Source: an uncultured Gammaproteobacteria bacterium
GTDB taxonomy: Bacteria > Pseudomonadota > Gammaproteobacteria > JBBQDK01
Length of the DNA stretch: 64,000 nt
Direction of reading: 5' to 3'
NCBI GenBank assembly: GCA_963778665.1
Contig: CAVZVG010000003.1
Coordinates: forward strand, 128,813-192,812
In this document: positions 3,161 through 59,055 of the stretch, piece after piece
How the letters are laid out: each line of letters begins with the position of its first letter
Position numbering within the stretch: position 1 is the stretch's first letter
Notes under the pieces: model-generated
What the model saw: only the letters and a program-made list of their open reading frames with translations
Database searches by the model: none
Told to the model about the DNA's origin: nothing
Translations under genes and position numbers: made by a program

Positions 3161-3208
3161 AAGGCACCTTGGAGGGTAGCGCTTTCGTAAACCTGAAAAA
3201 ATCCATTG

Positions 3209-3349
3209 AACCGCCAAAGACGCCAAGAGCGCCAAGAACGCCAAGGAAGGCAAGCAATTTGACCCAGCTACCTTTTCACTGGTTGTGTGAATAGGCGGTT
3301 GGAAACATATATCAGATTCTCTTGGCGCTCTTGGCGTCCTTGGCGGTTT
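3209..3349. repeat. MITE-like element with TTGGCG-triplet inverted termini (family C)
   Basis: AACCGCCAAAGACGCCAAGAGCGCCAAGAACGCCAAGG at 3209-3246 is the inverted partner of TCTTGGCGCTCTTGGCGTCCTTGGCGGTT at 3321-3349. Related copies at 10388-10420, 20467-20545 and 58909-58925. Confidence 0.55.
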
Positions 3350-3352
3350 AAA

Positions 3353-5557: not shown

Positions 5558-5650
5558 GAGCGCCTGACAAACAGCGATCACCACGGAGGACACGGAGAAA
5601 TTTTATTAAAGGAACTCCTTAATTGCAAAGCCGTCATGCCCGCGAAGGCG
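5558..5650. repeat. family A half-element plus family G hairpin (CATGCCCGCGAAGGCGGGCATC)
   Basis: GCGCCTGACAAACAGCGATCACCACGGAGGACACGGAGAAATTTTAT is near-identical to 1890-1945. The hairpin recurs at 10340-10356 and 15072-15099. Together they create spurious ORF 5555..5797. Confidence 0.55.
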
Positions 5651-10320: not shown

Positions 10321-10480
10321 CTGATCAATCGCGAAACCGTCATGCCCGCGAAAGCGCGCCAAGATATCTCCTCTTGAATTTCAAAACAGATTTTCTTGGC
10401 GTCCTTGGCGTACTTGGCGGTTCAAGTAATAAATCAGGGTTTCCTTAAAGTTGCAGGGGCGGGTCTAAGACCCGCACCAG
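10321..10480. repeat. composite repeat: family G hairpin, family C ~105-bp element and family F palindrome (GGGGCGGGTCTAAGACCCGC)
   Basis: 10355-10450 is the inverted counterpart (~90% identical) of 20440-20545. Confidence 0.55.
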
Positions 10481-17216: not shown

Positions 17217-17516
17217 GAGGATGGCACTTACTTAAGCGCTGAATTAGGAATGTAGCCTGGGCTGAGCGGTAGCGAAACCCGGGTTTCACTTCGTTCAACC
17301 CAGGCTACGTGTTGGCTTAAACGGTTAAGTAAGTGCCATTCCATTTAAGGAGCCTCTGATTTATTGAACTCATCAAAATGGAGAGGGGAGTAATCGAATA
17401 AATCAAGAGTTTCCTTAACAGAAAAATGCCTGCCGCAGAGGCGCTGAGGACGCAGAGAACAACCAGACACATGAATAACAACCTCATTACCTCTGCGTCC
17501 TCTGCGCCTCTGCGGC
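17217..17516. repeat. family D (GTAGCCTGGG...CCCAGGCTAC hairpin inside ATGGCACTTACTTAA inverted repeats), family H and family B (CCGCAGAGGCGCTGAGGACGCAGAGA inverted repeats) elements
   Basis: Family D also at 44733-44768 and 58938-59031. Family B also at 50409-50491. These overlap the annotated N-terminal extension of the LOG ORF. Confidence 0.55.
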
Positions 17517-17557
17517 ACAAGTCCATTCAGAATTTTCCTTTCGATGAGCAAACAATC

Positions 17558-20344: not shown

Positions 20345-20650
20345 TTCTCCCTCTACCTCCGGGTTGGGGAGAGGGTATATATAAAAGCGTCTAACAAAAT
20401 GATTGCTGAAAAGCATTAACCACGGAGGCCACGGAGAATTTTTAAGGAAACCCTGATTTATTACCTGAACCGCCAAGTACGCCAGAAGGACGCCAAAAAA
20501 ATCTGTTTTGAAATTCAAGAGGAAATATCTTGGCGTACTTGGCGGTTGACGGTTTTTTCAGACCTTCCTGAAAAGCATTCACCACGGGGAACACGGGGTT
20601 ATCAGCTGTTACCCCCGTGTCCCCCGTGGTGATGGCTTTTTGTTAGACGC
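20345..20650. repeat. nested composite of repeat families E, A and C (a family C element inserted inside a family A element)
   Basis: AGCGTCTAACAAAA at 20387 and TTTTGTTAGACGCT at 20637 bracket the composite. CACGGAG-type termini at 20420-20437 and 20582-20626. An internal 105-bp family C copy lies at 20440-20545. Confidence 0.55.
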
Positions 20651-20798
20651 TCTAAGTGTCCTGTCCGTCGGCAACCGCTTCCCGCGTTGTCCTGACTCCT
20701 GTATCCATGCGGTCGTCTCTCTGAAAGAGTAAAGAATATTCTTGTCAGGCTGCGCGGATAGCCCCCCTGTGTTTTTTCCAGACCGAGTATGCGCCCCG

Positions 20799-31871: not shown

Positions 31872-32414
31872 GTGGCGTTTATAGCGCAAAAGATATTTGT
31901 TTTGTGTCTGCGACACATTACTACAATCTTGTGTGAGTTTTCCGTCCTAATTGTAGTGCTCGTAGTATGCTGTCAGCCCTTGGCAAAGGCATCCGTCAGT
32001 TTGCCACCCATTCTAACCCCTACGTATCTGTACAATACTTCATGGGATAGCGGCGTTCCCCTTCGCACGTACTCATCGTTTGATGAGATGAGTCAACGAA
32101 TTATACAGTCTCTCTTAAATTCTGACCCGATCCTCTTCGCGGGAAGCTATTGGATTCAAGGGTCGAATCTCTTGATCCGCAGCCCTAACTACGGGAGCGG
32201 AGCAACGTTTGATTGGCCCGGGTATTATGCCTGTAGTGATCCGTATGGAACCGTTACTGGAGTGCCGGTAGATTATACAAATCAAGACACTCCTTACCTT
32301 TGTGCCTCATGCGCTCCCGGGGCCTTTTTATATGGACCTGATACGAACTATCAGTGCATGGGTTACTACATCGAATCTCAACGTTTCAATCCAATTAATA
32401 ATGGAGGAAACTAA
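31872..32414 (+). CDS. hypothetical protein encoded in low-GC (~45%) DNA immediately upstream of Rhs
   Basis: 180-aa ORF in AT-richer DNA, where long random ORFs are unlikely. Hydrophobic N-terminal segment; 6 Cys in the C-terminal half. No family recognised. Confidence 0.3.
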   Translation: MAFIAQKIFVLCLRHITTILCEFSVLIVVLVVCCQPLAKASVSLPPILTPTYLYNTSWDSGVPLRTYSSFDEMSQRIIQSLLNSDPILFAGSYWIQGSNLLIRSPNYGSGATFDWPGYYACSDPYGTVTGVPVDYTNQDTPYLCASCAPGAFLYGPDTNYQCMGYYIESQRFNPINNGGN

Positions 32415-35400
32415 ATATTGTCCGGCAATTGTTGGAGACCCCATCAGTCTCACAACTGGCAACAAGTTCCAAGTAGAGGACGTAGTGATCGGCAACACTC
32501 CGAGTGGTCTCTCATTCGCTAGCTACTATAACAGCCAAGCAGAAACTGCAGGCTCTCTGGGTGTTAACTGGCAACATACCTACGGCAGCGTGCTGCAATT
32601 TGACAGTGCGTCGTCAGGCCCTCCCCCACAGAATCCGTACATTCCGCAGCGGAGCAATATCTACTCCTCACCTCAGGGTGCCTGCGATCAGGCTGGAATG
32701 ATATCAAAGGCAACATTGCAGAGCCGTGGGTCAGCACCGCTGTTACTCTATACACAAATAATCGCTGTGAGATATACAGCAACGGCAGGTTGGTGTTGCT
32801 CTTGCCTATTTATTATCTGGGCGGTACGATTTTTTCTGGGGGCGGACTTATTTCGTCAACACTTCCAACACATACCGTCACAGTCATTCGCCCTGATGGC
32901 AAACAGATCCAATTCAGCAAGATCAGCGGTGTCTGGCAGAACCAGTCCTATATTGCCGAGCACTTGACCGAGACTGACGATAGCAATGGCAATACCACCG
33001 GCTACACCTACACAACTGCCGATGACAACACCGAAAATTACGACGCTACCGGCAGGCTCCAGTCCATCACCGACATCGCGGTAACACGCAGAACACTCAG
33101 TTACGATCGCCAGGGCGTCTTTCCACCGTCATACCAATACTGCCGAGTCGCTGACGTTCAGTTACGATATCAGCAACCGCATCAGCACGATAACCGATCA
33201 AGGCGGCCGGTCTGGCTGTACGGCTACGACGCCAACAACAATCTCGCCTCGGTCACCTATCCGGACGCTACGATCGCCGACAACACCGACAATCCGGAGC
33301 GCGTCTATCTCTACGAGAACACCAGCTTCCCACACGCACTGACTAGCATCACCGATTGCGCGCACGTATCGAGCTGCAGCACCTCCGCCGTGAACCACTA
33401 CGCCAACTTCGAGTACGACGCGCAACGGCCGCGCCACCGCGAGCTATCTCGGTCCAGCAGACATCGGTGACTGACCGACCGCATCGAAGGCGTCTCCATC
33501 GTCTACAACAGCGACTTCATGCGCACCGTCACCAACAGTCGAGGCAAGGTCAGCACCTACAGCACCACCACGCAACTCGGCGTGGCGCTGGTCACCGGTA
33601 TCACCGGTCCGGGGTGTTCCTCGTGCGGCGGCAAGCAATGCAAGCACCAGTATGACGGCAGCAACAACCTCACCAGCAAAACCGATAACAACGGCCACGT
33701 CACCCATTACGGCAACTACGATGCCAACGGCAACCCGGGCTGCGTGGTCGAAGGCATGACGACGGCGGATGCCAGCACCGGCGTGTGCAGCTTCGATCCC
33801 GCCGCCTCGCCCGATGCACGCCGCATCGATTACACCTACGACCCACGCTTCCACAGCAAGGTCGCGACGATCAGCGAACCGTCGGTGTACGCAGGGCACA
33901 ACAAGCTCACCACCAACAGCTACGACGACTACGGCAACCTGACCCAGGTCACGATCAGCGGCTATACACCCGACGGCACTCCCGTCACGCGCACCACGGG
34001 CGGCACCTACGCCGGTCCCTTGCATCAGCTCTCACTGATCGACGGCCCGCGCACCGATGTGCAGGATCTCACGACACTGGCCTATTACCCCGACGATCCG
34101 ACGCAAGGCAGCAACCGCGCCCGCCTGCTGAGCGTCACCGACGCCATGGGTATCGCGTTGCGGTCCAACATCCAGTACTCCGCCACCGGCAAGGTGCTGT
34201 CCGAGTCGCGTCCCAACGGTGTCTCTCTGACCTACACCTATTACCCCGGCAACGACCGCCTGCACACATTGACCGAGACCGGCGGCGGCACCAGCCGCGT
34301 GCTGAGCTGGACCTATCTGCCGACCGGCGAGGTGCAGTCCATCACCACCGCGAGCGGCACCGCCGCCGCCACGACCTTGACCCTCGGTTATGACGCCGGC
34401 CGTCGCCTCACCCGCATCACCGACGGCCTCGGCAATTACATCGAGTACACGCTCGACACCGAAGACAACCGTATCGGCGAGAACACCTACGACAGCAACG
34501 GCGCCCTCAAGAAAGCCATCACCCAGACCTTCGACGACTACAACCATCTGAGCAGCCGCAGTCAGGCCAATGAGACCCTCACCACCCACGTCGCGCCGGA
34601 CGGCACCCTCAGCAACACGGTCGATGGCAACAGCAGCACGACAAGTTATGGCTACGACGCCCTGAAGCGCCTGATCAGCACCACCCAGGACCTGGGCGGC
34701 AGTGATCCCACCACCCAGAACGCACTGACCCAGTACGCCTATGACAGTCACGACGACCTCATCCGGGTCATCGATCCCGACAACCATGCCACCAACTATA
34801 GCTACGACGATCTTGGCGACCTGATCAGCACCACCAGTCCGGACACCGGCACCACCACCAATACCTATGACGCCGCCGGCAACCTCAAGACCCGCAGCGA
34901 TGCCAACGGCAGTTCGTTCAGCTACAGCTACGACGCCGACAACCGCCTCACGCTCGTCGACGCCCCCGGCAGCAACGATGACATCACCTACACCTACGAC
35001 ACCTGCACCGACGGCGCCGGCCGGTTGTGCAAGGTCAGCACGCCCGGCAACAGCGTGTTCTACACCTACACCGCCTTCGGCGAGATCGCCGGCAGCGAGG
35101 GGCTGTATTACAGCTACGATGCCGCCGGCCGGGTGCAGACCATGACCTATCCTTCCGGCGCCGTGGTGACCTACGGCTACGATGCCGCCGGTGGGATCAC
35201 CAGCGTGCAGCTCAACCGCAACGGCACGATCACCAACCTCGCCAGCGGCATCGTGCACGCGCCGTTCGGTCCGGTGACGGCGCTGAGCTACGGCAATGGC
35301 AAGACGCTGACGCAGACACTCGACAGCGCCTATCGGCTGCAAGCACAGACCGTCCCCGCCGCCCTCGATCTGAGTTATCCGCAGTACGATGCCAACGGCA

Positions 35401-37094
35401 ACCTCATGCAGCGCGGCGACAGCTTCGCCACGCCCGCGACCAGCGGCTTTGGCTACGACGCCCTGAACCGCCTCAACACCGCCACCGGTCCGTTCGGCAG
35501 CCGCAGCTACAGCGACGACAAGAACGGCAACCGCACCCAGCTCGCCGATGGCACGACGACCGACTACAGCTACGAGTCCGGCAGCAACCGCTTGCATACG
35601 ATCGGCACGGCCGACGTGCTGAACGACGCCAACGGCAACATGCTCGGCAACGGTGTCTGGAGCTATGCCTACAACACCCACAACCGAATGACGCAGGCCA
35701 AGCAGAGCGGTACGGTGATCGGCAGCTATAGCTACAACGGCCTGGGCCAGCGCGTCGTCAAGACGCTCGCCAACGGCAAGGGCCGGGTGTTCCTGTACGG
35801 CACCCACGGCGAACTGCTGGCCGAGGCCGATCAGGGCGGCACCGTCCTCAGCGAATACATCTACCTCGACGGCACGCTGCTCGCGATCAACCAGCCCGAC
35901 GACAACAATAACGGCCAGACCAATGCCCAGGAAGATGTCGCCGGCACCAACCCGGTCAGTGCCGACTATGACGTCGACGGCCTCAGCAACCTCACCGAGT
36001 GGTTCGTGACCGGCACCAATGCGCGCCAACACCGATACCGACGGCGACGGCATCAGCGACAGCGTGGAAGATCGCCAAAGGCACCGACCCGCTGAACGGC
36101 AGCGCCTATCCCGGCGACGGCGACCTCAACCAGGACGGCCAGATCAACGCCGGCGATCTGGTACTGGAATCGCAGATCGCCCTCGGCACCCGCACCCCGA
36201 CCGCCACGCAACTCACCCACGGCGACATGAACCAGGACGGCGATCATCGACGTGCGCGATATGCTGAAGCTGGAAAGAAAGATACTGGGGCTGGCGTTCA
36301 ACAGCCTCACCACGCTGCCCGGGTATCAGACGCTGGTCGCCAGCCTCGATCGGGCCAAAGACACACTCCACAGCACGGCACACCAACTCCTCGCGAGCCT
36401 GATCAGCGAGGCCGATGCCGCGACACCGGGCGGGAAGATCTTTTATGTGCACACTGATCAGGTCGGGACACCGCAGGTGCTGACCGACGAGACCGGTGCC
36501 GTCGTCTGGCGGGCGAGTTATGATCCGTACGGGATGGCGACGGTGACACTGGCGACGGGCAATCCCATTCCGGAGATGGATATCAGGATGCCGGGGCAGT
36601 ACTTCGATCAGGAGACTGGGCTGCATTACAACTACTATCGGGATTATGATCCGAAGAGCGGTAGATACCCGGAAGTAGACGCCATTGGTTTAGCAGGTGG
36701 GACGAATCCCTACGTGTACGGGTATAACAACCCACTGAGATATACAGACCCGTCAGGACTGAAACCCATTCCATGTCCCCCAGGGTCTCCTGAGGGCGCC
36801 ACATGCGATGATGGAACAGATAATCAGAATTCCCCGCCTGTCTGTGTAACTGCTGAATGTGCAGCAAACATATTACCTAACCCTCCTTCTGATGCTTGCG
36901 ACATTGAGTGCGGGTTTGCCTCTGATGCGTGGTCATCTAGGCAAATGGTTTGCACTCCAATCGGCGGTGTAGCGCGACTCTTTGGAGCACCAGGATGGGC
37001 TGTCTCAACTGGGTGCAAAATTATTGCATCGCACGAATGTAAGAAAAAGTGCGAGAAACGCAAGGAGAAGAGTGTCCCATGTACAAAAAAATAG
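32401..37094 (+). pseudogene. Rhs/YD-repeat polymorphic toxin, frameshifted in at least 5 places
   Basis: N-terminal Rhs motif CPAIVGDPISLTTGNKF...GVNWQHTYG. About 50 YD repeats. Core end IFYVHTDQVGTPQVLTDETGAVVWRASYDPYG...DPSGL at 36747-36761, then a 110-aa Cys-rich tip. Frame changes near 32800-32960, 33470-33520, 36030, 36065 and 36245. Confidence 0.7.
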
Positions 37095-37414
37095 CACTAT
37101 CAACAATTATCTTGTATCAACGATTTATATCCCCCTACAAGGGTTACTGTTGCGCGCATCGTATCGCGTATGGCGGACCGTCATGCTCGCAATATGCCGC
37201 AATAGTTATATCTGAATCTGGAGTTCTATCTTCAATTCTGAAGATTAAGTTTCGTTTGCATAAATGCAGAGCTGCCTATGCTCAATTGCTAACAGACCAT
37301 ACAAATGGCATCGGCAGTAACGGTGGTGAGACTGATGACAACCAAGCGAATGGGAAGTGTGGGCCATGTGCGAAAGACACCGCAGGGAATATATGCACAA
37401 TGCCTTGTCTGTGA
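37079..37414 (+). CDS. YidD/DUF37-like protein (membrane protein insertion efficiency factor homologue) with Cys-rich tail, in the Rhs immunity position
   Basis: ILYQRFISPYKGYCCAHRIAYGGPSCSQYA...KFRLHKC matches the YidD pattern YQRLISP...CRF.PTCS.Y...KC. Overlaps the Rhs stop by 16 nt. Low GC, like the Rhs tip. Confidence 0.55.
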   Translation: MYKKIALSTIILYQRFISPYKGYCCAHRIAYGGPSCSQYAAIVISESGVLSSILKIKFRLHKCRAAYAQLLTDHTNGIGSNGGETDDNQANGKCGPCAKDTAGNICTMPCL

Positions 37415-37481
37415 CTGCCAAAGGTGACGACTGCCAAAGGTGACAACCAAAGGTGACCAACCAAAGACTGCCAAAGGTGAC
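37413..37481. repeat. degenerate tandem array of a 16-bp unit GACTGCCAAAGGTGAC (about 4 copies)
   Basis: Two perfect units at 37413-37444, then degenerate units running into the left REP of the RAYT. Confidence 0.6.
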
Positions 37482-37483
37482 AG

Positions 37484-38283
37484 ACGAACCAAAAGGGACA
37501 GATTTATTTGAGTCCACCATGCGGCAAGCTTGAGTGGTCAAAAATCACGGAGAGGAAGACATGCCAAGGAATGGCAGAGTTGTGTTGCAAAACTACCCCC
37601 ATCACATCGTGCAACGTGGCCATAACCGGCAAGTTGTGTTTGCCGGGGAAGATGACTTCAGGTACTACCTCGACACGTTAATAAAGTGGAAAACAGAGTA
37701 TGGCGTCAAGGTCTATGGTTATTGCCTGATGACTAATCATGTTCACTTGGTGCTGGAACCGCCCGACGAGATCGCAGTGCTGGGCCGGTTGATGAAACGA
37801 CTGGCAGGGCGGCAGACCCGCTATGTGAATCGTCTGGAAGGTCGGCGCGGGACTCTTTGGGAGAGTAGATATAAATCGAGCCCAATCCAGACCGATGAGT
37901 ATTTGTTGGCATGCTGTCGTTATGTGGATCTCAATCCGGTACGAGCGCGCATGGTGGTTTCACCACAAGATTATCATTGGTCAAGCTACAGGATGAAGGT
38001 GGGATTGGACGCATCATCTTGGATAGACGAAGATCCTTGTTATTTGTCGCTTGGTCTCGTAGCCGCAACAGCGGTATGAACGTTACCAAGACTTTGTGTA
38101 TTCAGCGATAGCGGAGGGTGAATGGGAGTTGATACGACAGGCCGTTCATCGTTGCCAATTGACAGGAAACAAATACTTTATCGATGAAGTAAACGTATCA
38201 CAGGTCGGCGAATAGAGCACCGCAACCCTGGCAATCAACCGCTGGAGAAGCGCGCCAAATAAATCTGTCCCCTTTGGTTCGTC
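37484..38283 (+). mobile_element. REP-associated tyrosine transposase (RAYT, IS200/IS605-like HuH) flanked by 28-bp inverted REPs; transposase frameshifted
   Basis: Inverted repeats GACGAACCAAAAGGGACAGATTTATTTG (37484-37510) and CAAATAAATCTGTCCCCTTTGGTTCGTC (38256-38283), 1 mismatch. CDS 37561-38215 has HuH motif MTNHVHLVL and Tyr motif RYVDLNPVRARMV..WSSY. A C-terminal frame change near 38070 continues into ...EGEWELIRQAVHRCQLTGNKYFIDE. Confidence 0.65.
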
Positions 38284-38794
38284 TTGCTTGATGCAGCGAA
38301 ATTTGCCGCCGTCAATTATGCCGCATCGAGGAGCAGCATGTGAAAATGGATATTGAGATTCAGCGCACTGCAGAAGCGCTGGATGAGGGTGATCCATCGT
38401 CTGTGCATCGAACGATATTACTCGTTAGCGATCTCTAATATTCTGCTGCATGGCGCCTTAGGATTGACAAGCGCACGGCACCAGTGTTAGCGTCGCCTCC
38501 ACAAGAGATGTGCCGTCAGCGCATGTCCACAAGCAATGACTTGAATAATTCATACGCAGGGCTGCATCAATGTCTCACGGATCGATGACATTCTTCTTCT
38601 GAATCTTGCCGGATCGAGCGTGTACAGCTGTGTCGTCCGGTGATAGCGACTGTTCATAAAAGTTGTAGCGCAAGCGCTGCCCCGCAAGCTGTGCAGCGCG
38701 ATGCGTCAGCGTCGTCCGTAGGATGGACCGGCGCGCAGGGATTTCCGCACCGACGGTTTCAAAAATTACCAACTCGGCCTAAAGGGAGTTCGTC

Positions 38795-41700
38795 ATGACG
38801 CACAATCCTCGCAACCTTCTAAGCGGCATCGTCATCCGTTTTCTGCTGTTGGTTTCATTCTTCGCTCTCGCGCCGTCGACCGGGTCTGCCGCTCCAGACA
38901 AGCCGCAAGTGAAAAATGCGCAGGCCTTGATACATCGGATTGCCCCGACAAAACCCGGGCACACACTACTGACGGACGCGGTCTACCACGACCAGATCGT
39001 GGTCAAATTCCGGGAAGGGACCCGTATCCGTCTGCGCAACAAAGTGCTGAAGGCATTGAACGGAAAGAACCTGGCACAACTTCACGATATGCTCGACAAA
39101 CACGGCAGGCCGCGCGTCAGTCGCTTGTTCAGCCGTTCCGAGGCGGGTCTTGACGACGATAAGACACGTGGCGAGGCTCGTACCCATCAGCAGCTCGCGG
39201 ACCTCAATCTGTACTACATGGTCCAGCCGCCCAGTGGTGCGAGTGAACAGGATGTCGAGTCCTTGATCGACGATCTCAACGCCATGGATATCGTCGAGAT
39301 CGCCTATCCGGAACCCAAGGCCGAACCGGCCGCCGCCGACATCCCACCCACGACACCCGACTTCGAAGCGGATCAGGGTCACCTGAATTCAGCACCACAG
39401 GGTGTGGACGCACACTATGGTTGGACCCTGCCCGGCGGCCAGGGTCTGGGTACCCGGTTCATCGATGTCGAATACGGCTGGCGTTCTACCCACGAAGATC
39501 TGAAGGCGCCCTTCTTCGCAGCGGGCAATTTCAGCAGCGGCACCTTAAGCGGCAACTCGTCCAACGACAACCACGGCACAGCGGTACTGGGAGAGATTCT
39601 CGGCGACGCCAACGGTTTCGGTATCACCGGCATCGCGCCGCAGGCCGAATATGGTGTCTCCTCCGCCACGCAGGGCGTCGCCCAGGCCATCAACACGGCC
39701 GCGGCGCAGCTGTCGCCCGGCGACGTCATCCTGATCGAGTTGCACATGAAGGGTCCCGCGTCGGGGCAGACCTGCACCTGCAACTGCGGTCAGTTCGAGT
39801 TCGTGCCGATGGAATACACTCAGGCCGACTTCGATGCGATCAAGGCGGCCACGGCCAATGGCATCGTCGTCGTCGAAGCCGGCGGCAACGGTTCGATGGA
39901 CCTCGATTCAGCGATCTACAAGGGAATGTTCGACCGCAACGTACGCGACTCGGGTGCGATTCTGGTCGGCGCGGGCAATAGTACGAATCATGGCCCCACC
40001 TGCTGGACCAACTACGGCACGCGTATCGACGTCCAGGGCTGGGGCAATAACGTCTATACGACAGGCTACGGCAATCTTTTCAAAGGAGACACCTCCGCAC
40101 CGGATCCGAATCAGTACTACACGGCGACCTTCTCTGGGACCTCCAGCGCCTCGCCGATCATCGTCGGCAGCGTGCTGGCGATGGAGGGATATCGCAAGCA
40201 GAACTACGGCACCGTCATTGCGCCCGAGCAGATGCGTCTGCTGCTGTCCATGCTGGGAACGCCCCAGGCTTCCTCACCCAAGCACATCGGCCCTCTTCCG
40301 GATATCCATGCGATGGCCGACCGTATGGGCGTGGATTCCGATCTCGACGGGCTCACCGATCAGCAGGAAGTCCAGTTCGGAACCGACATCCACCAGGTGG
40401 ATACTGACCACGACGGTGTATCCGATTACCGGGAAGTCTGTTACGACGGAGATTGCTCGACCTACAATCCCGCACCTGGCGGCGGAGACATGAATGCACT
40501 CGATCCGGATACCGATCACGACGGACTGACCGACGGGGACGAACTGCTGTTGTACGGCAGCAGCCCCGTGGCGATCGACGGCGATGGAGACGGTCTGTCG
40601 GATTTTGATGAAGTTCATGTCTATGGGACCAACCCGGGCAAGAGCGACAGCGACGGCGACGGCCTGAACGATCAAGAGGAGATTGTCCAATACCACACCG
40701 ATCCGCTGAATGCCGATAGCGACGGCGACTTGTTGAACGACTACGACGAAGTCATCACCTACCATACCGACCCTAACAACCCCGACAGCGACGGCGACGG
40801 ATTCACCGATGGCCAGGAAGTCCAGGCCGGCATGGATCCGCTGCAGTACGACGGGGAAGCCCATCCGTGGCTGGGCACGGTGACTGGCCGCGTGACGACG
40901 CCGGACGGTCGGGGGCTGGCAGGGGTGACGTTCTGGGATGTCACGAAGTATCCGCAGACGGTGACCACCGATGCGAACGGTTACTTCGTGCAGCGTGGTT
41001 ACACCAGCGGTCAAACGGTGTACTTCAACACTTTCGGAGTGCCGGGTTACACGCTGACGCCTTCCGGTTGGAGCGGTGCGCCGTTCGCCCACTCCGGCGG
41101 CGCGGAGGTGGCACGCAACTTCATCGCCACGCAGAACACCGGCACGGTGTCGGGACGGGTGACGAAGGACGACGGCAGCGCCCTGGCGGGGGCGACGTTC
41201 TGGGATGTCGTGAAATACCCGCTGACCTTCACCACGGCGGCGGACGGCTCGTTCATCCAGACGGGGTATCAGGCAGGACAGACCGCCTACTTCAACTACT
41301 TCGTGGTGTCCGGCTATTCGCTGACGCCTTCCGGCTGGAGCGGTGCGCCGTTCATCCACGACGGCAGCGCAATGACGGGCAAGGACTTCGTGGCCACGCA
41401 GAAGACGGGCACCGTGTCCGGGCGCATCACCTCGCCTGACGGCAAAGGCATCTCCGGACTGACCTTCTGGGACGTCCAGCGTTACCCGCAGACGGTGACC
41501 ACGGCGTCCGACGGCTCGTTCATCCTCACGGGCTACAACGCAGGCGACAACGTATTGTTCAACACCAACGGTATATCGGGCTACATGGTTACGCCTTCAG
41601 GCTGGAATGGCCAGTCCTTCACCCACGACGGCAGCGCCATCAAGCATCGTGACTATGTGGCGGTGCCCAACGGCAGTACAACCTGGTTGGGCACGGTAAC

Positions 41701-42490
41701 TGGCCGCGTGACGACGCCGGACGGTCGGGGGCTGGCAGGGGTGACGTTCTGGGATGTCACGAAGTATCCGCAGACGGTGACCACCGATGCGAACGGCTAC
41801 TTCGTGCAGAGTGGTTACACCAGCGGTCAAACGGTGTACTTCAACACTTTCGTGGTGCCGGGTTACACGCTGACGCCTTCCGGCTGGAGCGGTGCGCCGT
41901 TCACCTACTCAGGCAGCGCGGAGGTGGCACGCAACTTCATCGCCACGCAGAACACCGGCACGGTGTCGGGACGGGTGACGAAGGACGACGGCAGCGCCCT
42001 GGCGGGGGCGACGTTCTGGGATGTCGTGAAATACCCGCTGACCTTCACCACGGCGGCGGACGGCTCGTTCATCCAGACGGGGTATCAGGCAGGACAGACC
42101 GCCTACTTCAACTACTTCGTGGTGTCCGGCTATTCGCTGACGCCTTCCGGCTGGAGCGGTGCGCCGTTCATCCACGACGGCAGTGCAATGACGGGCAAGG
42201 ACTTCGTGGCCACGCAGAAGACGGGCACCGTGTCCGGGCGCATCACCTCGCCGGACGGCAAAGGCATCTCCGGTATCACGTTGTGGGACGTGACCAAATA
42301 CCCCCAAACGGTCACGACGGCATCGGATGGCTCCTTCACCATCACCGGTTATCAGGGTGGGGAGAATGTGCTGTTGAACACCAACGGAGCCACGGACTAT
42401 GACATCACACCTTCGGGATGGGATGGCCAGACCTTCGTTCACGACGGCAGTGCGATCACCAAACGCGACTTCATAGCCGTGCACAAGTAG
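38795..42490 (+). CDS. secreted S8 (subtilisin-like) peptidase with TSP3-type Ca-binding repeats and six carboxypeptidase-regulatory-like domains
   Basis: Signal peptide. Catalytic triad contexts D (FIDVEYGW), H (NHGTAVLGE), N (VVEAGGNG) and S (FSGTSSASP). DxDxDG repeats (DTDHDGLTDGDE, DSDGDGLND). Six ~90-aa repeats of the form GTVTGRVTTPDGRGLAGVTF.... Confidence 0.8.
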   Translation: MTHNPRNLLSGIVIRFLLLVSFFALAPSTGSAAPDKPQVKNAQALIHRIAPTKPGHTLLTDAVYHDQIVVKFREGTRIRLRNKVLKALNGKNLAQLHDMLDKHGRPRVSRLFSRSEAGLDDDKTRGEARTHQQLADLNLYYMVQPPSGASEQDVESLIDDLNAMDIVEIAYPEPKAEPAAADIPPTTPDFEADQGHLNSAPQGVDAHYGWTLPGGQGLGTRFIDVEYGWRSTHEDLKAPFFAAGNFSSGTLSGNSSNDNHGTAVLGEILGDANGFGITGIAPQAEYGVSSATQGVAQAINTAAAQLSPGDVILIELHMKGPASGQTCTCNCGQFEFVPMEYTQADFDAIKAATANGIVVVEAGGNGSMDLDSAIYKGMFDRNVRDSGAILVGAGNSTNHGPTCWTNYGTRIDVQGWGNNVYTTGYGNLFKGDTSAPDPNQYYTATFSGTSSASPIIVGSVLAMEGYRKQNYGTVIAPEQMRLLLSMLGTPQASSPKHIGPLPDIHAMADRMGVDSDLDGLTDQQEVQFGTDIHQVDTDHDGVSDYREVCYDGDCSTYNPAPGGGDMNALDPDTDHDGLTDGDELLLYGSSPVAIDGDGDGLSDFDEVHVYGTNPGKSDSDGDGLNDQEEIVQYHTDPLNADSDGDLLNDYDEVITYHTDPNNPDSDGDGFTDGQEVQAGMDPLQYDGEAHPWLGTVTGRVTTPDGRGLAGVTFWDVTKYPQTVTTDANGYFVQRGYTSGQTVYFNTFGVPGYTLTPSGWSGAPFAHSGGAEVARNFIATQNTGTVSGRVTKDDGSALAGATFWDVVKYPLTFTTAADGSFIQTGYQAGQTAYFNYFVVSGYSLTPSGWSGAPFIHDGSAMTGKDFVATQKTGTVSGRITSPDGKGISGLTFWDVQRYPQTVTTASDGSFILTGYNAGDNVLFNTNGISGYMVTPSGWNGQSFTHDGSAIKHRDYVAVPNGSTTWLGTVTGRVTTPDGRGLAGVTFWDVTKYPQTVTTDANGYFVQSGYTSGQTVYFNTFVVPGYTLTPSGWSGAPFTYSGSAEVARNFIATQNTGTVSGRVTKDDGSALAGATFWDVVKYPLTFTTAADGSFIQTGYQAGQTAYFNYFVVSGYSLTPSGWSGAPFIHDGSAMTGKDFVATQKTGTVSGRITSPDGKGISGITLWDVTKYPQTVTTASDGSFTITGYQGGENVLLNTNGATDYDITPSGWDGQTFVHDGSAITKRDFIAVHK
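40868..42487 (+). repeat. 816-bp near-identical direct tandem duplication inside the S8 peptidase gene (2 units, each 272 codons = 3 domain repeats)
   Basis: Unit 1 40868-41683; unit 2 41684-42487. Only a handful of substitutions, e.g. QRGYTSG versus QSGYTSG. Confidence 0.75.
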
Positions 42491-44529: not shown

Positions 44530-44960
44530 TCAGGTTCCCTCATCTTGGCTGTGGTGGTGAAGCGGCGCGAATGTCCGCTTCTTGGTCGGGATGCGTCGAG
44601 TCGGCGGGTACTTGCCGTGCGGCATCCATGGCTTGGTGCTGTGTTGTTCAGTGCGGAGTGTCGGCAGGACTATTGTTCGGCGTGTGTCGGGCATGCGTCA
44701 AGCGTTGCCGGGTGGCATGCATCGGTGGGCGGCGCAAACCCGGGTTTCACTGCGTTCAACCCAGGCTACTCGATTCCTTTCCGCCAGCAAAACCGCGTTG
44801 CCGGCGGCAGGTTATTGCCGTGCGGGCTGTGCTGTCGAATCGGTGATGCCATCCGAGACAACGGCTTACGGACTGGCTTCACCCTATGCACAAGTCGGAA
44901 CGAATCTTGCCTGAGACCAGGTAACGACTGCTTATATCAGGTGCGACCCGAGGTGCTGCA

Positions 44961-46887: not shown

Positions 46888-46988
46888 GAGCGATAGCTGA
46901 CAAAAAACGATTGACCACGGAGAACACGGAGAAGGACTGTCTATGGCATCCTCAATGCTCTCCGTGTCCTCCGTGGTTAATGCTTTCG
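46888..46988. repeat. family A inverted-repeat element
   Basis: GACCACGGAGAACACGGAGA at 46913-46932 and TCTCCGTGTCCTCCGTGGTTAATGCTTT at 46960-46987. Confidence 0.55.
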
Positions 46989-47033
46989 GTTGTTACACGG
47001 TCAGAGAAAAAACCTGATCCGGCCGTTCTTGGA

Positions 47034-50374: not shown

Positions 50375-50408
50375 GCCTGGCTTTGTCATGATATTCTGCC
50401 GCAGAGGC

Positions 50409-50491
50409 GCAGAGTACACAGAGATTGGGGAAGTCGTTGCTGGTATCAGCATAAACCTCTGCGTCCTCTGCGCCTCTGCGGCAATAACTCA
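50409..50491. repeat. family B inverted-repeat element
   Basis: CCGCAGAGGCGCAGAGTACACAGAGA / CCTCTGCGTCCTCTGCGCCTCTGCGG; a copy of 17433-17516. Confidence 0.55.
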
Positions 50492-58908: not shown

Positions 58909-59055
58909 GTACTTGGCGGTTCTGACGGTTTTTTCAGAATGTAGCCTGGGTTGAACGCAGTGAAACCTGGGTTTCGCTAAGCGCTCAACCCAGGCTACAT
59001 ATGAGCAGAAACGCCTTAAGTTAGTGCCATTGGTCTGAGACCCGCCCCTACAAGT
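58909..59055. repeat. composite of family C fragment, family D hairpin and family F half-palindrome
   Basis: GTACTTGGCGGTTCTGACGGTTTTTTCAG; GTAGCCTGGGTTGAACGCAGTGAAACCTGGGTTTCGCTAAGCGCTCAACCCAGGCTAC; GGTCTGAGACCCGCCCCTAC. Confidence 0.55.

Follow-up and report, generated by a model that had tools for sequence, protein, structure and literature searches.

The DNA analysed here is a 64-kb stretch (64,000 nucleotides; hereafter the window) of contig CAVZVG010000003.1 from an uncultured gammaproteobacterium. Behind a fragmented Rhs gene and a small YidD-like open reading frame (ORF), it carries a gene for a Y1-type tyrosine transposase which is enclosed by two long terminal inverted repeats (TIRs) and preceded by an array of short direct repeats (Table 1). 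We consider it very likely that this unit, at 37413-38284, is a decayed TIRtron, that is, a gene of the TIRYT class (subclass 2.1 of the TnpA-Y1 transposases, or Group 1 of the RAYTs, the tyrosine transposases associated with repetitive extragenic palindromes, REPs) with inverted conserved ends and, on its left side, additional half-sites that repeat the outer part of the arm in direct orientation.

Table 1. Positions of the TIRtron, the adjoining genes and other inverted repeats in the window
Feature	Positions	Strand	Remarks
Array of direct partial copies of the left arm's outer half	37413..37481	+	GACTGCCAAAGGTGAC, three exact copies, one variant and one fragment
Left terminal inverted repeat	37482..37510	+	AGACGAACCAAAAGGGACAGATTTATTTG; ends 50 nt before the ATG
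TIRYT pseudogene (TnpA-Y1 subclass 2.1 / RAYT Group 1)	37561..38262	+	233 codons once corrected; TAA at 38260-38262, within the right arm
Right terminal inverted repeat	38256..38284	-	Overlaps the last codons and the TAA stop of the gene
Last reading-frame piece of the fragmented Rhs gene	36252..37094	+	Core end DPSGL at 36747-36761, then the tip
YidD-like ORF in immunity-gene position	37079..37414	+	PF01809, E 3e-10; TIGR00278, 57.7 bits
Other inverted doublets, first group	1842-2079, 5558-5617, 20397-20656, 46892-46991
Other inverted doublets, second group	17431-17517, 50394-50483
Other inverted doublets, third group	17270-17348, 44736-44784, 58941-59013
Other inverted doublets, fourth group	3206-3351, 10406-10449, 20441-20484

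The transposase pseudogene and its repeats

The repeat finder recovered the two arms as a 29-nt inverted pair that is complementary at 28 of 29 positions. These near-identical repeats had been seen in the original prediction, at a length of 28 bp, and are confirmed with one mismatch and one more nucleotide. Neither the rest of the window nor shuffled sequences contained a further copy of the arm at up to three mismatches. The reverse complement of the right arm contains GGGGACAG, an exact fit to the motif GGGGWSAS, and the left arm has AGGGACAG, with one change; the outer edge of the repeats reads AAAGGGGAC / GTCCCCTTT. Outside the left arm lies an array of 16-mers, each of which corresponds to the outer half of the repeat arm (GACGAACCAAAAGGGAC). 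Exact copies start at 37413, 37429 and 37466, a copy with two mismatches at 37442, and a fragment (CAACCAAAG) occupies 37457-37465, against a chance expectation of 0.5 matches per window; about four related 16-mers had been counted earlier. All six occurrences of the half-site CCAAAGGKGAC in the window belong to the 37413-38284 element. A third core-like site at 32838 (three mismatches), inside the Rhs coding sequence and with no gene beside it, was taken as a chance match. A scan of 36500-39000 against Rfam gave no match at E<=0.1, and a promoter and terminator scan found no more sites than in shuffled sequences, with the + strand around the left arm free of them.

The gene contains two frame changes, which were located by three-frame translation and set against a ~99% identical copy at locus L108 (ENA ERZ25039495 contig_63973). 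One is an extra A at 38061, which gives a stop at 38077-38079 and accounts for the frameshift originally placed near 38070; it is not the sole one, as a C is also missing between 38190 and 38191. Read from the ATG without correction, the product has 172 amino acids and consists of the catalytic core without the C-terminal helical domain, which the frameshift removes. The corrected protein has 233 amino acids and aligned end to end with intact 233-aa homologues. Since the other long ORFs of the window (up to 1412 aa) are uninterrupted, the frameshifts are probably genuine decay rather than assembly errors. The window copy as written is probably inactive, because its C-terminal domain is lost.

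The protein matched Pfam Y1_Tnp (E 1.8e-13). Its HUH motif is N59-H60-V61-H62 (37735-37746; H60-H62 at 37738-37746), and the catalytic Tyr is Y121 in RYVDLNP (37921-37923); both are conserved together with W100 (LWES), and NHVH and RYVDLNP vary little or not at all among 25 aligned sequences (the window protein and 24 homologues). We detected 3818 homologues at E<1e-10, mostly of ~233 aa. With the frameshift-corrected protein, the best-scoring NCBIfam family was NF047646 (REP_Tyr_transpos), at 73.8 bits and thus under its cut-off of 80, and NF033573 (transpos_IS200) reached 21.9 bits versus a cut-off of 55. The structure was modelled for P0001, an intact homologue 88% identical to the window protein. 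Its AlphaFold model (mean predicted local distance difference test score, pLDDT, 84) has a Y1 core and a C-terminal part that is helical over residues 143-214 (block-mean pLDDT ~70-96). The best solved structure in a fold search was the E. coli RAYT-REP complex 4ER8 (E 3e-7), followed by IS608, ISDra2 and IS200 TnpA; when solved structures were searched by sequence with the family profile, a Sulfolobus IS200-like protein (E 0.003) was the sole hit, so that 4ER8 was reached by fold alone. The HUH and Tyr motifs and this fold match bear out the original description of a RAYT-type Y1 enzyme.

RAYT-like genes with long flanking inverted repeats have been set apart from REPtrons and named TIRtrons, which encode TIRYTs (Di Nocera, De Gregorio & Rocco 2013, BMC Genomics 14:522; PMC3733652). 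Their repeats were reported to share the GGGGWSAS motif and to overlap the 3' end of the gene, and in some species moderately abundant repeat families occur as dimers or clusters. Most TIRYTs belong to TnpA-Y1 subclass 2.1, which is the RAYT Group 1 of Bertels (Quentin, Siguier, Chandler & Fichant 2018, BMC Genomics 19:475; PMC6006769). This subclass is characterized by NHVH, W[EQ] and Y[IV]xLNP motifs, a median length of 238 aa, ~1.9 copies per genome, the absence of REPs, and a C-terminal extension that resembles helix-turn-helix domains (Bac_DnaA_C / HTH_23 / HTH_28 similarity). Highly abundant flanking 16-mers were described for RAYT Groups 2 and 3 only (Bertels, Gallie & Rainey 2017; PMC5581495). 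The window unit has 29-nt arms, GGGGWSAS, NHVH / LWES / YVDLNP and 233 aa, and its gene is the only Y1 gene in the 64 kb, with no REP-like hairpin nearby. DNA folding of both arm regions on both strands was no better than in shuffles (z +1.44 to -0.23), neither arm is palindromic, and sequence inspection found no GT[AG]G foot at either of them. On these sequence features, we regard the assignment to the TIRtron/TIRYT class (TnpA-Y1 subclass 2.1, RAYT Group 1) as secure. The window element is a broken example of an already described kind.

Conservation of the ends and copies in other genomes

We examined the 80 metagenome loci that gave the best matches to the window protein. When the 79 loci with enough flanking sequence were scanned with GGGGACAGATTTATTT (up to three mismatches), the repeat core was found on both sides of the gene in 70, from many environments. 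The pair of repeat and transposase is thus not a private one, contrary to the original assumption. A logo of 69 loci yielded a 20-nt core, AAAAGGGGACAGATTTATTT, outside which there was no conservation; the core ends a median of 58 nt ahead of the ATG, whereas at the other end of the homologues the right arm is located at the stop codon or just behind it. For example, in L001 and L005, whose proteins are 79% and 63% identical to the window protein, the gene is bordered by this core, with the right arm across the stop and extra half-sites upstream. In the consensus (69 loci, and the doublets of L118), an A-run lies before the repeat and a T-run behind it (AAAAGGGGAC...GTCCCCTTTT). Because of these flanking runs, a doublet transcribed either way would resemble an intrinsic terminator, and terminator-like doublets could matter for a position after operon ends.

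Half-sites outside the left arm of the 70 loci were found in the same orientation at 2.95 per kb versus 0.15 per kb in reverse. At least one extra half-site was present in 25 of the 70, with clear cases in L035, L050, L085 and L087, and the window has the most. Since half-sites recur at this rate in homologous loci, the 16-bp tandem array is a recurrent feature of the left end of the family and not a peculiarity of the window. Between the window and its ~99% identical counterpart in L108 the array is not the same, and it thus changes faster than point substitutions accumulate.

A scan of a genome collection with ACCAAARGGGACAGATTTATTT found 16 stretches, 15 of them in gammaproteobacterial metagenome-assembled genomes (MAGs) and one (L103) in a MAG labelled as a Halobacteria archaeon; the source genome of the window was not among them. 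Most are inverted doublets without a gene, with arms 8-60 nt apart and several doublets per genome, which fold as strong hairpins (z -8 to -16). The element was not matched in E. coli genomes. In the archaeal MAG (CAVYIJ010000006.1, 1276-1926 and 7839-7968), a TIR array of bacterial type, with half-sites on both sides, accompanies a TIRYT-like gene 40% identical, suggesting misbinning or transfer. Another side observation involved L087 (3032-3805) and L016 (3458-4240), in which the Y1 gene is immediately followed by a second one; that of L087 has its own TIR pair and forms a tandem TIRtron.

The L108 copy is ~99% identical to the window element inside the repeats, and the flanks outside them are unrelated; the match breaks off within the right arm, after GTCCC(C)TTTG. 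The GC content of the element is 49.7%, ~12 points lower than that of the window (61.2%), and the L108 contig has 47%. Because this near-identical copy lies in unrelated flanks of a 47%-GC contig, the window copy probably reached its 61%-GC genome recently, from a donor with ~47-50% GC, and has decayed since. Positions 1-52 of L108 repeat the ribosome-binding site and the first TIRYT codons (184-236), joined directly to the half-site array, which may be a rearrangement or an assembly artefact. The closest relatives on long contigs (P0006, P0008, P0013, P0014, P0020 and P0066) are single-copy genes found in the same place across samples. Since dispersed and near-identical copies exist alongside such single-copy relatives in housekeeping contexts, the family, as judged from its distribution, shows both long vertical residence and occasional bursts.

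Toxin-immunity cassettes upstream of the gene

All fetched loci were searched with the Rhs sequences of the window, and then by an iterated search. In several loci, Rhs core ends were detected on the strand of the TIRYT gene, 0.8-1.4 kb upstream of it; the loci with an upstream Rhs end are L012, L016, L035, L043, L065, L076, L081 and L085. Usually, the Rhs core with its DPxGL is followed by the tip, by one or two small ORFs and then by the left repeat, TIRYT gene and right repeat, and the left repeat mostly follows ~10-130 nt after the last cassette stop (further away in L016 and L051). CdiA (DUF637) ends with LHH, Ntox24, Ntox43 or unassigned toxins were present upstream in L023, L039, L050, L051 and L087, followed by a small ORF in immunity position (SUKH-family in L023 and L051) and then by the left repeat. 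Some loci contain orphan modules. In L081, a gene-less doublet is followed by an orphan Rhs end with a Sel1-repeat ORF and then by the TIRtron, and in L108 the TIRtron is followed by an orphan Rhs end with a small ORF and then by a half-site and a solo left arm. In a neighbour-joining tree, toxin-linked TIRYT genes were scattered over at least four clades.

A Pfam scan of 114 upstream ORFs, with 116 downstream ORFs as control, gave a similar picture. The commonest upstream families were DUF637 (CdiA pretoxin region; four members), RHS_repeat (four) and RHS (three); LHH nuclease, SUKH_5/SMI1_KNR4 and DUF6862 had two members each and Imm8 one. None of these toxin families was among the top 25 of the downstream control. 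A toxin end with an immunity gene was found directly upstream in 13 of 51 loci (those with at least 1 kb upstream) versus 2 of 50 downstream (Fisher p 0.004), all 16 toxin-linked cases were co-oriented with the TIRYT gene (p 3e-5), and 13 of 51 also exceeds an assumed background of 3% (p ~3e-9). About three quarters of the loci have no toxin cassette upstream. The association of TIRYT genes with toxin cassettes is statistically clear and directional in this sample of best matches, in which the 3' edge of Rhs/CdiA toxin-immunity cassettes is the single most common context of the gene. We found no report linking Rhs or contact-dependent inhibition (CDI) systems to a RAYT, IS200 or tyrosine transposase, or describing the repeat, in a literature search that left out most subscription journals. 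The toxin-TIRYT link is not mentioned in the available parts of the two TIRYT papers (PMC3733652, PMC6006769) or in the polymorphic-toxin survey PMC3482391. Within the literature so covered, the link appears to be previously unreported.

An extended example was found in Pseudomonas aeruginosa. Among 72,556 plasmid records, the only close match was 'plasmid unnamed1' of P. aeruginosa strain 2858 (NZ_CP116719.1; L118/L119, 1-24299), a linear sequence of 24.3 kb with 51.7% GC. At its beginning, a DUF637 (CdiA-type) gene is represented by its 3' end; a DUF3969 ORF comes next, and then orphan modules with a deaminase, EndoU, a glutamine deamidase with YrhB, and a DNA/RNA endonuclease. The sequence contains 25 repeat cores (0.14 in shuffles) and three TIRYT genes in full elements. 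In addition, at least six units of ~190 bp, mutually 73-95% identical, lie between the modules; they retain the left arm, 5' leader and first codons (ATGCCTAGG) on one side and, on the other, the 3' end together with the right arm, and by their make-up they are internal-deletion derivatives of the TIRtron. Two annotated ORFs run into, or begin in, a repeat. Although filed as a plasmid, this record looks like the end of a chromosomal CDI locus with a long orphan toxin-immunity array.

The Rhs gene of the window itself (31872-37094) is split over at least five reading frames, and its 5' part (31.5-33.0 kb) has 48.8% GC versus 64% in the core; from its sequence it looks like a mosaic pseudogene, and the island as a whole looks decayed. 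The gene matches PF03527 and TIGR03696, and after the DPxGL that closes its core come a variable tip and a small ORF overlapping the Rhs stop. The tip (~110 aa) is cysteine-rich and low in GC (49.6%); a protein database search gave no relatives of it, with matches to the Rhs core part only. The YidD-like ORF (43.9% GC) overlaps the Rhs end by 16 nt, and the first 16-mer of the array begins within its TGA stop. A word-based search of 5.8 billion proteins found no relatives of this ORF, which is a putative immunity gene by position. No orphan Rhs fragment was found downstream of the TIRtron of the window.

Other features of the window include at least four further families of dispersed inverted doublets. 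None of these matches the TIR, in agreement with the earlier statement that the element repeat is unlike the other repeat families of the window. One doublet family is GTAG-footed (GTAGCCTGGGTTGAACG) and thus of the classical REP type, and three are made of short internal sub-repeats (CACGGAGGACACGGAGA; GCAGAGGCGCTGAGGACGCAGAG; GCCAAGAGCGCCAAGA). An ORF of 1231 aa at 38795-42490 has 267-nt internal repeats and acidic repeats of the DxDxDG type, and 45-nt repeats similar to those of this ORF occur near the Rhs core end, at 35946-36148.

Interpretation and comparison with known systems

If the window unit is a decayed TIRtron, a mechanism can be proposed by analogy. The enzyme would recognise the repeat and use Tyr121 together with the HUH metal site to cut and rejoin single-stranded DNA at the outer edge of that repeat; a hairpin would form when the two arms, or those of a doublet, pair within the single strand. 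The window copy would have entered the 61%-GC genome recently from a lower-GC donor and then lost its C-terminal domain. The position of the window copy, immediately behind the Rhs tip and the putative immunity gene, is the context seen most often in the family; either toxin-immunity cassettes may move together with a TIR element attached 3' of them, or such ends may be what the element targets. It is conceivable, and we put it forward tentatively, that TIRYTs and their repeats, either as full TIRtrons or as ~190-bp hairpins, act as a portable 3' boundary of polymorphic-toxin cassettes and aid their acquisition. Units of the form 'toxin end - immunity - repeat' might move by single-strand transposition, composite or one-ended; alternatively, the repeat might supply a downstream homology or joining site that is lacking in C-terminal displacement. 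We hold this role in cassette movement or 3' joining to be doubtful, because the sample consists of best matches, the background is assumed, most loci have no cassette and the L108 element moved without its neighbours.

Several points weigh against the reading of the unit as a decayed mobile TIRtron with a link to toxin cassettes. The closest relatives have housekeeping neighbours and a GC content that tracks the host, and look domesticated rather than mobile. The frameshifts could be long-read consensus errors, and L108 has a frameshift of its own at a different site. Pfam detected no DNA-binding domain in the C-terminal part of the protein (its only match at E<=0.01 was Y1_Tnp). Recognition and cleavage of the repeat are inferred by analogy with IS608 TnpA and the E. 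coli RAYT, which act on hairpin substrates. Finally, the 80 loci are not a random sample, and the background rate of toxin cassettes was an assumption, not a measurement.

A simpler account of the association, which we think has an even chance of being correct, is that a selfish or domesticated TIRtron landed or survived in dispensable DNA behind the Rhs pseudogene without any role in tip or cassette exchange. Variable islands gather mobile DNA, and the whole Rhs island of the window is decaying. The L108 element moved without its flanks, some three quarters of the loci lack an upstream cassette, and the nearest relatives are found in housekeeping contexts. Such a junkyard effect, however, predicts cassettes on both sides and in both orientations, and not 13 upstream versus 2 downstream with co-orientation in 16 of 16. 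It also has to contend with the short distance between the last cassette ORF and the left arm (mostly 10-130 nt, except in L016 and L051) and with the repeat elements that part successive orphan modules in P. aeruginosa, L081 and L108. It had originally been suggested that the activity of the element helped to deliver or exchange the Rhs tip of the window. The part of this idea that holds is the co-oriented upstream association (13/51 vs 2/50); that this element delivered this particular tip is not borne out by the different flanks in L108 and by the closest relatives, which lie among housekeeping genes. We consider it unlikely that the unit is a domesticated host gene whose repeats serve as operator or terminator sites and whose half-site array adds further binding sites. 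Co-option of RAYTs has been argued (Bertels 2017; PMC5581495), and a left arm at a median of 58 nt before the ATG, a right arm at the stop, the A-run and T-run around a doublet, reminiscent of a bidirectional terminator, and single-copy relatives with fixed context and ameliorated GC would all suit such a function. The deletion derivatives that multiplied in P. aeruginosa, the doublets dispersed in several MAGs and the ~99% identical copy in another genome context are difficult to reconcile with it, as is the lack of a promoter-like site on the + strand near the left arm.

Two other readings concern the class of the element. The original prediction saw a canonical REP-RAYT-REP arrangement, i.e., a REPtron, in which a RAYT is accompanied by its own REPs, dispersed genome-wide as REP doublets forming hairpins (REPINs). 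The HUH and Y-x-x-x-NP motifs, 4ER8 as the best fold match, REP_Tyr_transpos as the best-scoring family and the dispersed hairpin doublets of relatives agree with it. The arms were nevertheless rejected as REPs, since a single arm forms no hairpin and lacks the GTAG foot, and the protein score is below the cut-off; TIRYT/TIRtron features are present instead. Only two copies occur in 64 kb, where the other doublet families recur 3-4 times, and the core is kept across proteins 56-63% identical, unlike the subclass-specific REP types of RAYTs. The literature also sets the TIRYT class apart and finds no REPs with it. We therefore judge a REPtron to be very improbable here. An insertion sequence of the IS200/IS605 type is the least probable of all, with hardly any chance of being correct. 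It could draw on the name of the Pfam family ('Transposase IS200 like') and on the fold matches to IS608, ISDra2 and IS200 TnpA, and it conflicts with the 21.9 bits against a cut-off of 55, the motif Y-x-x-x-NP in place of Y-x-x-x-Q, the absence of subterminal hairpins and of tnpB, and a protein of 233 aa, ~80 aa longer than the usual ~150.

The decayed TIRtron of the window ranks low when taken alone, being a broken copy, and the comparison that it prompted matters more. The near-invariant 20-nt ends of the subclass across very divergent hosts provide a well-defined substrate with which biochemical work on these enzymes could begin. The toxin link makes both the joining of new toxin tips at their 3' side in C-terminal displacement and the function of subclass 2.1 (RAYT Group 1) testable in a tractable organism, and TIRtron derivatives are interspersed through a CDI orphan array of clinical P. 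aeruginosa. A portable 3' boundary, if true, would give a role to the second-largest TnpA-Y1 subclass and would account for the hairpins between orphan modules in such arrays.

Two more distant systems are integron cassette arrays, whose attC hairpins are recognised in folded single-stranded form, and the orphan arrays of Rhs and CDI loci, which C-terminal displacement builds. The likeness is that palindromic elements which fold as hairpins lie between successive toxin-immunity modules (in P. aeruginosa, L081 and L108) and that a recombinase-like gene is found inside the array. This is a resemblance only. The TIRYT is an HUH endonuclease where integrons use a tyrosine recombinase; these arrays showed neither an attI-like site nor a single promoter, and the likeness of the hairpins to attC need not extend to a role as recombination sites. 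REPtrons, such as E. coli YafM (4ER8) and the Group 3 RAYTs of Pseudomonas, are closer. They share the catalytic fold and motifs, the position of the gene between inverted copies of its presumed substrate and, in some genomes, dispersed gene-less inverted doublets that fold as hairpins. A single arm of the present element, however, is neither a hairpin nor GTAG-footed, the protein is below the NCBI equivalog cut-off, and the TIRYT has an additional helical C-terminal domain of ~90 aa. REP types are subclass-specific, whereas the TIR core is kept across proteins that are only 56-63% identical.

IS200/IS605 elements (IS608, ISDra2) provide the best available model of the chemistry, an HUH-Y1 reaction on single-stranded DNA. 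Together with their miniatures, they also offer a parallel to the autonomous copies and internal-deletion derivatives that occur side by side in P. aeruginosa. TIRtrons differ from them in having terminal inverted repeats as ends, without subterminal hairpins and without tnpB, in the Tyr motif (Y-x-x-x-NP versus Y-x-x-x-Q), and in that most copies are single and vertically stable. The system most similar to the window unit is the published TIRtron/TIRYT class. The available text of the published accounts contains neither the near-universal core AAAAGGGGACAGATTTATTT nor oriented half-site arrays nor the link to Rhs/CdiA cassettes, and the window copy differs further in being a pseudogene. It otherwise shares with this class a RAYT-like Y1 gene between long, non-REP inverted repeats, the GGGGWSAS motif, a repeat that extends over the 3' end of the gene, the motifs NHVH / WE / Y[IV]xLNP in a protein of ~238 aa with a C-terminal extension, a low copy number, and repeat families that are moderately abundant, as dimers or clusters, in some genomes.

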